The notes: a model not told the origin generated them from the letters alone. A stretch of 64,000 nt of DNA from a virus (IMGVR_UViG_3300044645_001661); one strand, 5' to 3'; positions 24,101 through 63,188 are shown, numbered from the stretch's first letter. Translations and numbers: made by a program.

Positions 24101-27002
24101 TGAACCATTTACTCAATTAAGGTTCTCACAACCAGTAAAAAATCTTTATCCACAATTAGATAGAGACAATATTAATTCTGATCCAGATCCAACAGTATCT
24201 TTTGCATTACCTTCTCCATTAGGATTAGTTGAAGTTAATAATCCTCAAAATTCTATTACTAGAGAAAGTATTGTAAGAAGCATTAATGATTTTGCTGTAG
24301 GTTTTGGATTAACAGATATTCAGTCTTCTTCTGGATTAGCACATACATTATACACTAGAATTGATCATGGATTGAATAGAATTACTAGAGTTGGTATTGT
24401 AAGTGCTGGTGAAAATTATGGATCTGGATCTGGATCTATTGAAACCCTTTATAATGCTAAATTAGTAGGATTTGCTGGATCTACAACTGGAAATTATGCC
24501 ACTGCAAATATTAAAGTTGATGCCTTAGGTAGAATAACAGATGTTAGAGTTATTGATGGTGGATCTGCTTATGGAATTGGCAATACTCTTTCTGTAGTTG
24601 GTGTAGGTACAACTTTAGGTCATATTGTTGGTGTAGTATCTGTAACTCAAATTAATAATGATATTGGTAATGTAATTTCTATAAGTGGTTTATACGATAA
24701 AGTTTTTGGGTCTTATAATAATCTTTATAGAATTACTGGAATTAATGTAGGACAGACCAATCAAATTCAAGTTGTATCTTCTTCTGAGGTAATAGCACAA
24801 TATCCATTTACTGGATCTACCCCTATTGCTGGAGTTAATACCAATGGATTGAGTAAAATTAATGCCACTCTTTTAAATACAGTTGAATCTTATGTTACTG
24901 GTAATTCTTTAGGGATTACATCATTTACATATAATAATGTAACTGGAATTGCAAGTGTTACAACACTTCAATCTCATGGATTTGTGAATGGTACTAAATT
25001 CAAAGTTGGTGGATTTAATCAAAGCGTTTATAATGGTAATTTCATTGCATCAAAAATTGTTGGATTAAATGATTTTGAATTTAATATTGGAATAGGTACG
25101 ACCTCACCAATATCTTCTGGAACTGCATACATTTATATACCAGGATTTGCCGCACAAGGTGGATTGCTGTCTGTAGATAATGAAGCAAATTCGAGTAGAC
25201 TTGTTGCTCAATATGCTGGAATTACAACTACTTTAGATGTTGCATTAGTAGATCCAACAATCAATACTCTTACAGTTACAAATGCATTAGATCGTAACTG
25301 GCAAGCTGGTGATTATATTATTGTTAATACCGAAATAATGCGTATTAGTGAAACTGTTGTAATTAATACTGCAATAGATGTATTCCGTGGATTATTTGGA
25401 ACTTCGAAGCAATCTCATCCAGCAGGATCTGTTGTTAAGAGAGTAAGATTTAAACCTATTGAATTTAGAAGAAACTCTATCTTACGTGCTTCTGGACATA
25501 CATTCGAATATCTTGGATATGGCCCAGGTAACTACTCCACAGCACTTCCTGAAAGACAAGATAGACAGTTTATTGATGTTGAAAGAGTCTTATCTCAATC
25601 TGTAAGTGATGACGGTGGAACTCCAATTTATAATGGATTAGATGATAATGGTAATACCTATACAGTTAATAAAGTAACAAACGCATCTACTGGTCAAGAC
25701 TTATTAACTAAAGCACCAATTCCAACTGTTAGAGGTGAAGACATTACCTCTAATACACAAGCAGTAGGTTTTGATGTAGATTCTACAGATGACCTGACAG
25801 TTGCTAGAGGATTAAAAGTTGAAGGTGGAACTGAGTCTACTATCATCTCAGAATTCAATGGACCAGTAATTTTTACTGAGAAAATAACATCAACTTCTGA
25901 AGATGGAATTTTAGCGTCTTCTTTATTCCTCCAAGGTGAATCTACAACTTCTAGAAAATATACTGTAGGAATTGCTACTCCAGGATTATCTGGAAATGCT
26001 GGAGATATTGTCTATAAAGCAGATCCTAATGGTGGAGTTGCTGTTGGTTGGGTTTATACATTAGAGAATTCCTGGCAAGAATTCGGTCCTATTAAATCTG
26101 TAGGAACAGAAAGATATTGTGGTATCTTTAGTGGTGCATTTGTTGGTGATGGATCTGGTCTCGATAATGTATCTGACGTTTGGGTATTTGATGGTATTGG
26201 TATCTCTACCACAAGAGCTGTTGGTATGGGAACAACTTCATCTGTTCCAAGTGTTGCACTATATGTTGGTGGTAATGCTATATTTGCTGGTGTTACTACA
26301 ATTAGAACAAACCAGTTAACTTTTGACGTTCCAAATGGATTCCTTGTTAATACTGGTATAACCACATTTAATCAGCAAGTTAATGTTAATACATTAAGAA
26401 CAATTGGTATTTCAACATTCCAAAATGATGTTATTATTACAACAAATCCAGCAACTACTGGTGATACTGCTGGTAATTTCCTAAGATTTGTTCAATCTGA
26501 TACATCAATTACTTCTGCCTACCAGTATGGTGGAATTAATTGGGAGGGTAATGATATTGGTAATAATGGTGTAAGAGGATATATTAGAGGTGTTGCTGAA
26601 GGTAGTACAGGACAATTTGCTATTACATTCGGAACACAACAATCTGGACCTTCTGCACCAATTGAGCAACTTAGAATTGCTTCTGATGGTAATATAACTG
26701 CTAGTGGTGAAATTACTGCACTATCTGATGAAAGATATAAAACAAACGTAAAAAATATTGATGATCCTCTTGCTAAAGTTCTACAACTTCGTGGTGTAGA
26801 ATATGATAGAATTGATAAAGAACAACATACTATTGGACTCATCGCTCAAGAAGTAGAAAAAGTCCTCCCAGAATTAGTTCATGAAAATCATGAGGGAGTA
26901 AAATCAGTTGCATATCAAAATATGGTTGCAATTCTGATTGAGGCGATTAAGGAACAACAAACACAAATTGAAGATCTGAAGAAGCGACTAGACAATCTAT
27001 AA
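21174..27002 (+). CDS. Large tail fibre/structural protein with C-terminal peptidase S74 intramolecular chaperone
   Basis: MGLSRLDNFLKN...RPFKTIQRALIEAARFSY N-terminus; SDERYKTNVKNI...GLIAQEVEKVLPELV...IEAIKEQQ at C-terminus (Ser codon 26724). Confidence 0.88.
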   Translation: MGLSRLDNFLKNSRGDILYVDPSSIDSTDSIENQGNSLVRPFKTIQRALIEAARFSYQRGLDNDRFGRTTIIVYPGEHLIDNRPGWIPIHDNPVAGNNWLTRGGAVSNEFPEFNLNSNFNINDDTNDLYKMNSVYGGIIIPRGTSIVGMDLRKTKIRAKFIPNPEDSTIDRTSIFRVTGSCYFYQFTFFDADPNSVVFKDYGPTKFVPNFSHHKLTCFEYADGVNPVIIDDDYITYKTTKTDLDLYYDKIALTYGSSSGRLISPDFPNSGVDVQTKIDEYRIVGSKGQNVGITSIKAGDGVVSSTTITVDIEESIGGLDVDTPIRIEGVPTAGYNGQYVVSTSESSTRITYKTSSAPANPLPTIVSGTPTLNIVVDTVTSASPYIFNCSLRSVFGMCGLHADGNKADGFKSMVVAQFTGIGLQKDDNAFLKYNSTSGVYEDKTAVSNIHTNSSAVYKPEYENFHIKASNDAFLQLVSVFAIGYANHFLAESGGDHSITNSNSNFGAKSLVARGFKKEAFPRDDTGFITHIIPPQEIQSEDINIEYTSIDVEATVGIGSTTRLYLYNETDLANPPLSVVDGYRIGSKINDELKVLLNINGQSTTKTSKIIMPNTQGRGIYESSSYKEAIVGRTNIGINSISSNTFTLTAPHQFIQGESLRVYSSDGELPDGLNHNQVYYAITAGINSNQVKLAQTFNDTITEDAVIVNNKGGILTFESRVSDKKSGDIGHPIQFDSGNGQWYITVSGISSYNQIYSSVVGLGTTTLGRTTPRTFITRKSDTRSLTDKIYKVRYVIPKDSAVVARPPRDGFVIQESNTTIGATQEEIGKYNSVDAVILNNSSELRNYRFISNAIWDSVGIATLTTEIPHELSVGSLIQINNIKSGFNTTGIGNSGFNGEYYVTSKLSRREFTIGLTTNPGLFQSDTSTRDINLPYYKRVRFNNTFVIYKSEEIQQYVPNTKDGVYHLTIVDSSNSPSVEPFTQLRFSQPVKNLYPQLDRDNINSDPDPTVSFALPSPLGLVEVNNPQNSITRESIVRSINDFAVGFGLTDIQSSSGLAHTLYTRIDHGLNRITRVGIVSAGENYGSGSGSIETLYNAKLVGFAGSTTGNYATANIKVDALGRITDVRVIDGGSAYGIGNTLSVVGVGTTLGHIVGVVSVTQINNDIGNVISISGLYDKVFGSYNNLYRITGINVGQTNQIQVVSSSEVIAQYPFTGSTPIAGVNTNGLSKINATLLNTVESYVTGNSLGITSFTYNNVTGIASVTTLQSHGFVNGTKFKVGGFNQSVYNGNFIASKIVGLNDFEFNIGIGTTSPISSGTAYIYIPGFAAQGGLLSVDNEANSSRLVAQYAGITTTLDVALVDPTINTLTVTNALDRNWQAGDYIIVNTEIMRISETVVINTAIDVFRGLFGTSKQSHPAGSVVKRVRFKPIEFRRNSILRASGHTFEYLGYGPGNYSTALPERQDRQFIDVERVLSQSVSDDGGTPIYNGLDDNGNTYTVNKVTNASTGQDLLTKAPIPTVRGEDITSNTQAVGFDVDSTDDLTVARGLKVEGGTESTIISEFNGPVIFTEKITSTSEDGILASSLFLQGESTTSRKYTVGIATPGLSGNAGDIVYKADPNGGVAVGWVYTLENSWQEFGPIKSVGTERYCGIFSGAFVGDGSGLDNVSDVWVFDGIGISTTRAVGMGTTSSVPSVALYVGGNAIFAGVTTIRTNQLTFDVPNGFLVNTGITTFNQQVNVNTLRTIGISTFQNDVIITTNPATTGDTAGNFLRFVQSDTSITSAYQYGGINWEGNDIGNNGVRGYIRGVAEGSTGQFAITFGTQQSGPSAPIEQLRIASDGNITASGEITALSDERYKTNVKNIDDPLAKVLQLRGVEYDRIDKEQHTIGLIAQEVEKVLPELVHENHEGVKSVAYQNMVAILIEAIKEQQTQIEDLKKRLDNL

Positions 27003-27008
27003 ACTGTC
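26991..27008. promoter_or_regulatory. Palindromic operator copy 1
   Basis: GACAATC-tata-AACTGTC; TATAAT at 27041. Confidence 0.65.
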
Positions 27009-27034
27009 AGGGGGGTTGACAACCCCCCTTTTTT
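27009..27034 (+). terminator. Terminator hairpin with TTGACA across its loop
   Basis: AGGGGGGTT-GAC-AACCCCCCT then TTTTT. Confidence 0.8.
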
Positions 27035-27057
27035 ATGGTGTATAATAATGGAGTAGT

Positions 27058-62774: not shown

Positions 62775-62970
62775 ACTATCAGCAGCAGACCTTATGGTAA
62801 TTCATAACACTCTTTATAAAAGTTTGAGTGTCGTTGGAAATAGTATTTGGACACAAGAAACCAGAGAAAGAGTTATGGATAAGGTGTCTATTATTATGGA
62901 ACAAATGAAAGCAGAAGTTGTCTGTGGTGATGTAGAACCTATTGTAGTGAGTGGAGATGTTGGTGGATAG
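62767..62970 (+). CDS. Small hypothetical
   Basis: Start re-called to ATG 62767. Confidence 0.5.
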   Translation: MTKLSAADLMVIHNTLYKSLSVVGNSIWTQETRERVMDKVSIIMEQMKAEVVCGDVEPIVVSGDVGG

Positions 62971-63109
62971 TATTGAAGAACTCCAAAAATACTTGGATGA
63001 CCATAACATTACATTTGAAGAGTATATGAGAGCAAATATGATTACTGATGAAGACAAGAAATATTTTGATAAGATATGGATGGATGCGATTTATAAGAAC
63101 TTTGGTGAG

Positions 63110-63127
63110 GACACTTGAACAACTGGC
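63110..63127. promoter_or_regulatory. Palindromic operator copy 8
   Basis: GACACTT-gaac-AACTGGC; imperfect hairpin follows; TATGAT at 63160. Confidence 0.7.
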
Positions 63128-63188
63128 ACAGGGGATGCTCTGGGTGCCTCTGTGGGTGGTATGATACTCTCATACACACAGAAACCTG

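Follow-up and report, generated by a model that had tools for sequence, protein, structure and literature searches.

T4-like cyanophages, among the most abundant viruses of the main primary producers in the ocean and in lakes, are without the MotA/AsiA switch of T4 (to our knowledge, cyanophages have neither motA nor asiA), and the question arises which protein reads their early promoters. It is taken up here for a stretch of 64,000 nucleotides (nt) of the virus IMGVR_UViG_3300044645_001661 (the window), in which a first-pass annotation had pointed to an 18-bp palindromic operator repeated eight times at a fixed distance from -10 boxes. The repeated palindrome is a real feature of the window. 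On balance, we lean towards reading the phage element as a copy of the element in the host's yfr2 small RNA (sRNA) promoters, with a dimer of the host protein PlmA that would bind the palindrome and replace the -35 contact.

The eight 18-mers, like the eight hexamers that resemble a -10 box, were found where the first-pass annotation had placed them, and the gap between the end of the 18-mer and the hexamer is indeed 31-34 nt. Measured from the conserved 21-mer (the 18-mer plus ACA/CAC) to the TAnnnT -10 box, the gap at the eight sites ranges over 28-31 nt and is most often 29 nt. The core of the proposed 18-bp palindrome held, but its full extent did not, as the dyad reaches 22-24 bp and the variants yield the symmetric consensus (T)GTGMCASTT-N4-AASTGKCAC(A). 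Under leave-one-out scoring within the window, the sites at 53991, 57003, 58891 and 63110 reached 18.5-25 bits, where 0 matches are expected by chance, and those at 26991, 30618, 48527 and 51923 reached 11.8-13.5 bits, a level at which 1-2.6 matches per window are expected by chance. The window thus holds four strong and four degenerate members, and the degenerate ones count only because of their geometry relative to the -10 box.

Because circularity was to be avoided, we trained a 24-column weight matrix on IMG/VR cassettes that had been located via the -10 box and leader alone, and not via the motif or the window. This matrix scored at least 6 bits at 7 of the 8 sites (scores in Table 1), with a TAnnnT hexamer at 28-31 nt in all eight, and only 1 of the 12 other plus-strand matches in the window at or above 6 bits had such a hexamer at that distance. 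At 48527, 51923 and 30618 the promoter-proximal half (AACTGTCCAC / AACTGACCAC) alone is well kept, and the 48527 site scored -0.4 bits on the plus strand versus 13.0 bits on the minus strand. The lack of a recognisable -35 hexamer, which had been noted for several sites, holds at most of them but not at 26991 and 48527, where a -35-like TTGAC(A/G) lies in the loop of a hairpin formed by the spacer. These two sites rank among the weakest palindromes of the window, which is what would be seen if the element took the place of a -35 hexamer.

The motif identifies a genuine, conserved promoter class, whose strict spacing and usual lack of a -35 hexamer fit a dimeric factor acting on RNA polymerase. 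Judged by its sequence, the element combines with a -10 box that lies 29-30 bp downstream, in most cases without a -35, into a predicted promoter type that stands at the head of small-gene (early-type) modules in T4-like cyanophages. The genes that it heads lie in small-gene regions or encode a methylase and a helicase, and its position fits the early class. Across 44 sites, the two variable pairs of the dyad are mostly non-complementary (A/G in 30 of 44, C/C in 31 of 44), and the rest show no covariation because they do not vary. This pattern speaks for a protein site with two-fold symmetry on DNA and not for an RNA helix. Assuming a start 6-7 nt after the -10 box, the element spans ∼-65 to -42 with its centre at ∼-53.5. 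As had been noted, its consensus is unlike those of CRP and NtcA sites; its centre differs too (class II reference sites read TGTGA-N6-TCACA or GTA-N8-TAC and are centred at -41.5). "Operator" is a loose term for sites that appear to behave like an activator site centred near -53.

Three other readings of the motif were tried and dropped. An RNA hairpin was set aside for want of compensatory changes in the dyad. A sigma-54 promoter, suggested by the TGGCAC within the motif, showed by eye no TTGC at the right distance; cyanobacteria are not known to have sigma-54. Extrusion of a hairpin that moves the TTGAAG of the motif to -35 distance would still leave a spacer of ∼20 nt, and phages without the hairpin keep the same spacing.

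The element is not peculiar to the window. Copies were found across the scanned cyanomyovirus genomes at counts well above those of controls, genome-wide, as the first-pass annotation had anticipated, and throughout the clade of T4-like cyanophages. These scans were made on the genomes of relatives. At least 120 contigs in IMG/VR carry an exact copy of the 21-mer GACACTTGAANAACTGGCACA, with ∼0.1 expected by chance. At up to 3 mismatches to the 21-mer, S-SRM01, B3, S-PM2 and two IMG/VR genomes (G001 and G002) carry 3-11 copies per genome, on one strand in each, and S-CRM01, P-SSM2, S-SCSM1, Syn9 and S-RSM4 carry 1-8, nearly all co-oriented; the reversed control pattern gave 0 matches in both sets. 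When a degenerate palindrome was counted, likewise at up to 3 mismatches, we found 26 matches in G001, 25 in S-SRM01, 24 in S-CRM01, 17 in P-SSM2, 11 in Syn9 and 9 in P-SSM4 (control 1-2 in each). T4, KVP40 and the cyanopodovirus P-SSP7 had 0, and the pelagiphage HTVC008M, a member of the Kyanoviridae that infects Pelagibacter, had 1 (control 0-1 in each). Within T4-like phages, the element tracks the cyanobacterial host, a distribution that fits a host factor.

The spacing is equally conserved. The element was present in 86 of 121 distinct cassettes that had been anchored on the -10 box and leader alone, and 84 of these 86 have 29 or 30 nt between its end and the -10 box. G002, a GC-rich phage, has spacers that share no sequence and do not fold, with the distance unchanged. 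A fixed distance across unrelated spacers argues that two promoter elements are read together, and that the element is not a mere repeat. In Syn9, units of palindrome, spacer and -10 box lie at 44.8-53 kb, in the small-gene region gp56-gp93. S-PM2 (AJ630128) has three copies only within 3 mismatches of the 21-mer (8576, 9856 and 195639), each of them within its dispensable "ORFanage" region or next to it; a freshwater-phage origin has been suggested for this region (Puxty et al., PMC4503421). Contigs in metagenome-assembled genomes (MAGs) labelled Euryarchaeota, Methylococcus, Polynucleobacter and Kaiserbacteria (L300, L327, L362 and L377) also hold cyanophage-type cassettes, complete from the palindrome and a spacer of 29-30 nt through TATAAT/TATACT to the leader and ATG; these contigs are probably phage DNA put in the wrong genome bins.

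A link to the host was examined by a scan of 185,579 species genomes with the pattern GACASTT-N4-AASTGGCACA, which gave at least 120 matches. Among the matches listed, 22 were cyanobacterial, ∼25 fell in a sulfatase coding motif (GHFGKWH) and a few lay on phage contigs within MAGs. In loci of Nodularia, Anabaena, Spirulina and Synechococcales, genes of the Cyano-1 sRNA (RF01701, Yfr2 family) begin 41-44 nt after the element. In the converse test, Cyano-1 genes were taken from 150 genomes across the phylum and their upstream regions were scored with the matrix trained on phage cassettes. At 12 of 41 Yfr2 promoters this matrix reached at least 10 bits (background, 0.007 per window scored); 11 of the 12 matches end 39-41 nt before the sRNA, and several further promoters scored 6-8 bits at the same position. 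The architecture of the host yfr2 promoters, in which the palindrome ends ∼29-30 nt before the -10 box and no -35 is present, is also that of the phage element. Phage cassettes and host yfr2 promoters thus have the element, the -10 distance and the absent -35 in common, on the host side across the cyanobacterial phylum.

Further features of the yfr2 loci deserve mention. Many filamentous cyanobacteria carry tandem arrays of two to three Yfr2 genes ∼160 nt apart (L394, L403, L405, L411, L414 and others), often with the palindrome before some copies only. At one Cyanobiaceae locus (L461, genome G190), a perfect phage-type palindrome, GTGCCACTTATACAACTGGCAC, is followed after 29 nt by TAAATT and then by a protein-coding gene, a possible non-yfr2 member of a host regulon.

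A candidate for the factor that reads the host element is already at hand. The yfr2 promoters of Prochlorococcus and marine Synechococcus contain a 21-22 nt palindrome, CGRE1, and with CGRE1 of the MED4 yfr2/yfr4 promoters as bait the GntR-family protein PMM1637 (PlmA type) was pulled down (Lambrecht et al. 2018, PMC6191309). Wild-type PMM1637 shifts the yfr2 and yfr4 promoters, the R50A variant does not, and PMM1637 raises expression from the yfr2/yfr4 promoters in an E. coli reporter (PMC6191309). The phage element, GTGMCASTT-N4-AASTGKCAC, is composed of the CGRE1 half-site in 9 of 9 letters. Each of five cyanobacterial genomes encodes exactly one protein with a GntR domain, PlmA. The recognition helix of PlmA reads LHRNTISKVY without any change between Prochlorococcus-like genomes and Nodularia, and a screen of five motif-rich phage genomes for GntR, among the helix-turn-helix families, found none. 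The first-pass annotation had left the choice between a host and a phage factor; the likeness of the phage site to the yfr2 element now favours a host factor over a phage factor, with PlmA as the named candidate.

Under the mechanism that we propose, a dimer of PlmA, the host's single GntR regulator (PMM1637 in MED4), would bind the palindrome and recruit or stabilise the host RNA polymerase in place of the -35 contact, so that a host cell in its unmodified state could transcribe the injected phage genome immediately, with MotA and AsiA dispensable. The broader claim, that T4-like cyanophages begin infection by copying the Yfr2 promoter and that PlmA activates immediate-early phage transcription, is put forward more tentatively, as something a little short of an even chance. 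PlmA is connected with PII-PipX nitrogen/carbon signalling and with light stress. If the claim is true, the nutrient and light state of the host would gate early phage expression, and plmA would be a host factor required for infection. Because the early-type promoter matches yfr2 in sequence and geometry and is absent from related non-cyanobacterial phages, the question of its reader would be reduced to a named protein. In the literature that we searched, no paper ties PlmA, PMM1637, CGRE1 or Yfr2 to cyanophage promoters.

Several observations weigh against a PlmA-read copy of the yfr2 element. In the Cyanobiaceae, to which the hosts probably belong, the full palindrome of the phage type shows no genome-wide enrichment (15 matches versus ∼26 in the control, 41 genomes), only 2 of 28 yfr2 promoters reached at least 10 bits with the phage matrix, and most have one good half-site only. 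The order of the half-sites is opposite, AACTGTCAC-N1-GTGACAGTT in CGRE1 versus GTGACAGTT-N4-AACTGTCAC in the phage element, and the reported start of CGRE1 at -55 to -57 differs from the ∼-65 to -42 spanned by the phage element; PlmA binding to the phage arrangement is consequently an extrapolation. The element probably belongs to a published class of cyanophage early promoters, an equation supported here by the clustering of the Syn9 sites in gp56-gp93. That class is a "novel regulatory element" of early genes, non-sigma-70-type, abundant and conserved, which Doron et al. reportedly described in 2016 in the T4-like cyanophages Syn9 and P-TIM40; it is probably also the early-promoter motif to which the first-pass annotation alluded. 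They are also said to have assigned host-like promoters to middle genes. CGRE1, moreover, is seemingly confined to marine picocyanobacteria (Lambrecht et al., PMC6191309).

Within the Cyanobiaceae sample, yfr2 promoters of the HL-Prochlorococcus type read CAACTGTCAC-T-GTGACAGTTG, and LLIV-like ones carry AACTGGCAC-A/T-GTGMCAGT near -20, matching the position near -20 given for the MIT9313 yfr2 element (Lambrecht et al., PMC6191309). At two HL-Prochlorococcus-like loci (L424 and L416, genomes G168 and G186) there are three half-sites in a row, AACTGTCAC-N-GTGACAGTT-N4-degenerate, of which half-sites 1 and 2 form CGRE1 and half-sites 2 and 3 a phage-type site. Such triple half-sites may reconcile the two arrangements.

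The same differences in half-site order and start-site distance would be explained if the sites were a true promoter element read by another host factor, either some other protein that binds DNA or a component of the RNA polymerase holoenzyme, with PlmA binding only CGRE1. PlmA binding is known from one organism and one arrangement (PMC6191309), and phage-type sites stand before yfr2 in many cyanobacteria beyond the one in which PlmA was studied. We nevertheless consider this alternative unlikely: the half-site equals the PlmA-bound element in all nine letters, no second GntR protein accompanies PlmA in the genomes examined, its recognition helix does not vary over the taxa that retain the half-site, and any candidate besides PlmA is without support. 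A dimeric protein encoded by the phage itself, injected or made very early and acting as an activator or as a repressor that shuts off early genes, strikes us as improbable. Operator systems are common in phages, the regions concerned contain many small unannotated open reading frames (ORFs), and phage genomes, with 9-26 sites per ∼200 kb, are far richer in the site than those of the hosts. However, the same site and geometry occur before host sRNA genes in genomes free of the phage, a centre near -53 is unusual for a repressor, no GntR domain was found in the five motif-rich phage genomes (of the helix-turn-helix families, the screen covered this one alone), and in S-PM2 the canonical 21-mer has only 3 close matches, none of them away from the dispensable ORFanage (PMC4503421).

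The location of the cassettes invites two readings in which no protein need bind DNA. They sit at the borders of gene modules, with the stop codon of the upstream ORF within or just before the motif in 73 of 78 cases; the same cassette stands beside unrelated genes in many contigs; and the gene content of relatives differs right after the 58891 cassette, a weak indication given the short aligned sides. The motif might accordingly serve as no more than the homology arm of a mobile promoter-terminator cassette, of the stem-loop kind discussed below, that shuffles genes and has no protein reader. We give this very little credence, because homology arms need neither a dyad, nor a fixed distance of 29-30 nt over unrelated spacers, nor a counterpart at host sRNA genes, and a role in shuffling is compatible with one as a promoter. 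Its place where the upstream ORF ends and a terminator-like hairpin follows would also suit an element acting in RNA, as a 3' hairpin or RNase site that ends the upstream transcript. This is scarcely credible, as a stem made by the most frequent version would contain two internal mismatches, compensatory changes were not seen, and in the hosts the element precedes the start of the sRNA, in DNA outside that RNA. Among these readings we retain a host-derived promoter element read by PlmA as the favoured one.

The promoter is embedded in a compact cassette that runs from the end of the upstream ORF through the element, a 28-31 nt spacer and the -10 box to a conserved leader of ∼22 nt (ACTCTCATACACACAGA...) and the ATG. 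In the related cassettes, the upstream ORF was counted at 45 codons or more, and in 36 of the 73 in which it stops at the element, the element's own TGA (GAC-ACT-TGA) is the stop codon. The spacer varies in sequence and keeps its length, and it often appears to double as a hairpin or terminator of the upstream gene. Terminator-like GC hairpins occupy the spacer at four window sites (27010-27034, 48549-48572, 57027-57050 and 58911-58939, found by terminator scan or plain reading). Spacers of the 78 related cassettes fold with a mean minimum free energy of -12.1 kcal/mol versus -6.8 for shuffles, and only 21 of the 78 contain a T-run. With stop codon, hairpin, operator, -10 box and leader in ∼100 bp, such a unit would explain the exchange of single small genes as ready-to-express units. 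RNA-library contigs of relatives (4 metatranscriptome runs, covering small genes) join 58911-58974 to 59975-59979 or to 63160, that is, to sequence ∼1 kb or 4.2 kb beyond the 58891 cassette, and one of them has a different 29-nt spacer. These joints are a weak hint of gene exchange at cassette borders, the shorter aligned sides being only 22-47 nt.

Table 1. Elements, spacer hairpins and promoter boxes in the window. Scores are those of the cassette-trained matrix on the plus strand.
Feature	Position	Strand	Score (bits)	Remarks
Element, degenerate, GACAATCTATAAACTGTCAGG	26991..27011	+	10.1	-10 box 29 nt on; TAA stop of a 1942-amino-acid ORF at centre
Spacer hairpin GGGGGG-TTGACAA-CCCCCC + T6	27010..27034	+		Read from sequence; -35-like TTGACA in loop
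-10 box TATAAT	27041..27046	+		Precedes Eco57I-like methylase ORF 27058-30228
Element, degenerate, ACCAATTTTTGAACTGACCAC	30618..30638	+	7.2	-10 box 30 nt on; contains TGA stop of ORF 30218-30634
-10 box TATAAT	30669..30674	+		Precedes ResIII/DEAD helicase ORF, listed as 30663-31925
Element, proximal half only, AACTGTCCAC	48527..48547	+	-0.4	Contains TGA stop of DUF7717 ORF 48141-48536
Spacer hairpin CCTCC-TTGACG-GGAGG + T8	48549..48572	+		Terminator-like; loop TTGACG (-35-like) 17 nt before -10 box
-10 box TATATT	48577..48582	+		Precedes ORF 48606-48893
Element, degenerate, GACAGATGAACGACTGTCCAC	51923..51943	+	9.8	TACAAT 29 nt on; within 3' end of ORF 51264-51980
-10 box TACAAT	51973..51978	+		Precedes DUF7717 ORF 52001-52456
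Near-perfect palindrome TGTGACACTT-GCTA-AAGTGTCCAA (site 53991)	53988..54011	+	15.8	Without spacer hairpin
-10 box TATGAT	54040..54045	+		28 nt after element
Separate sigma-70-type promoter TTGACA-17-TATACT	54084-54112	+		11/12 consensus positions
Element, strong, ACCACTTTAAAAAGTGGCACA	57003..57023	+	24.2	16.0 bits with host-derived half-site matrix
Spacer hairpin, 10 base pairs	57027..57050	+		Terminator-like
-10 box TATAAT	57054..57059	+		After 57003 element
Canonical element GACACTTGAAGAACTGGCACA	58891..58911	+	38.1	Internal TGA is stop of ORF 58597-58899
Spacer hairpin, 10 base pairs + T-run	58911..58939	+		Terminator-like
-10 box TATAAT	58943..58948	+		Followed by conserved leader GACTTCATACACAACAAACCGA
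Canonical element GACACTTGAACAACTGGCACA	63110..63130	+	36.4	Internal TGA
-10 box TATGAT	63160..63165	+		Followed by conserved leader ACTCTCATACACACAGAAACCTG, then ATG of ORF 63189-63422

The window has a G+C content of 33.5% and was recovered almost entirely in lake-water metagenomes; the cultured cyanomyoviruses S-SRM01 and S-PM2 match it only in short stretches, at ∼80% identity. The plus strand is the coding strand for most of its genes. Large genes of virion type, including that for a 1942-amino-acid tail-fibre-like protein with an S74 chaperone domain, run up to 27002, and 3' of them lie the Eco57I-like methylase, then the helicase and many small ORFs. The hairpin at 27010..27034 looks like a terminator of the upstream late gene, and the true start of the helicase ORF lies probably downstream of the listed 30663. 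Rfam at gathering thresholds, applied to the whole window, reported two tRNAs only and nothing at any of the eight sites. The two tRNA genes (19965-20035 and 20628-20699) separate the structural genes from the tail-fibre-like gene, and the gap at 21026-21173 contains a TTGACA-17-TATAAT promoter and a terminator.

At some sites the surroundings of the element are more elaborate. One of two DUF7717 paralogues (48141-48536) ends within the 48527 cassette and the other (52001-52456) begins directly after the 51923 cassette. The strongest terminator-like hairpin of the region, at 52974-53004, has 12 base pairs and a T6 run, with neither a palindrome nor a good -10 box downstream. On the minus strand, the palindrome at 53988-54011 scored 21.1 bits with a TATCTT hexamer 27 nt further on, and this reading could drive an antisense transcript into ORF 53042-53992. 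The sigma-70-type promoter at 54084-54112 lies ∼40 nt downstream of the 53991/54040 promoter, so that two promoter types are stacked before the same genes.

Among known systems, the element of Doron et al. shares conserved abundance with the one described here (9-26 palindromes in six cyanomyovirus genomes, 11 of them in Syn9), but its source was reportedly Syn9 and P-TIM40, as opposed to an uncultured lake phage. The literature that we searched on the cyanophage early-gene element names neither a binding factor nor a link to host yfr2. The motif is not described in Sullivan 2010, in two papers on promoter-early stem-loops (PeSLs), in the S-PM2 ORFanage paper or in the Ma-LMM01 transcriptome, and a full-text search with a 10-mer of the motif returned unrelated primers only. 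CGRE1 shares with the phage element its 9-nt half-site (GTGACAGTT / AACTGTCAC), a palindrome of 21-22 nt and a place upstream of a -10-only promoter, and its own effect on transcription is positive. However, the half-sites of CGRE1 are everted around a centre of 1-2 nt, whereas those of the phage element are inverted with N4, and phages are absent from the account of Lambrecht et al. (PMC6191309), in which the phage-type arrangement in the yfr2 promoters of other cyanobacteria is likewise undescribed.

The cassettes also recall the PeSLs of RB49/phi1, PST and nt-1 (Arbiol 2010, PMC2839356; Comeau 2014, PMC4122927), in that they too would combine a compact terminator with an early promoter, punctuate hyperplastic regions of small ORFs and probably serve as sites of modular exchange. 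A PeSL comprises consensus -35 and -10 hexamers, an AT-rich upstream region and a stem-loop upstream of the promoter (PMC2839356, PMC4122927). In the cyanophage cassette, in contrast, the promoter encloses the stem-loop, most copies have no -35, a good -35-like hexamer being present in the window only at 26991 and 48527, and a palindromic putative protein site lies upstream; cyanophages are unmentioned in either PeSL paper (PMC2839356, PMC4122927). A closer parallel in logic is the T4 middle promoter, with its MotA box at -30, its -10 hexamer and AsiA, since there too an activator site and a -10 box stand in place of a -35 hexamer. The cyanophage site differs in being palindromic, of another sequence and centred near -53, and the factor proposed to read it would be derived from the host, with no appropriation of sigma.

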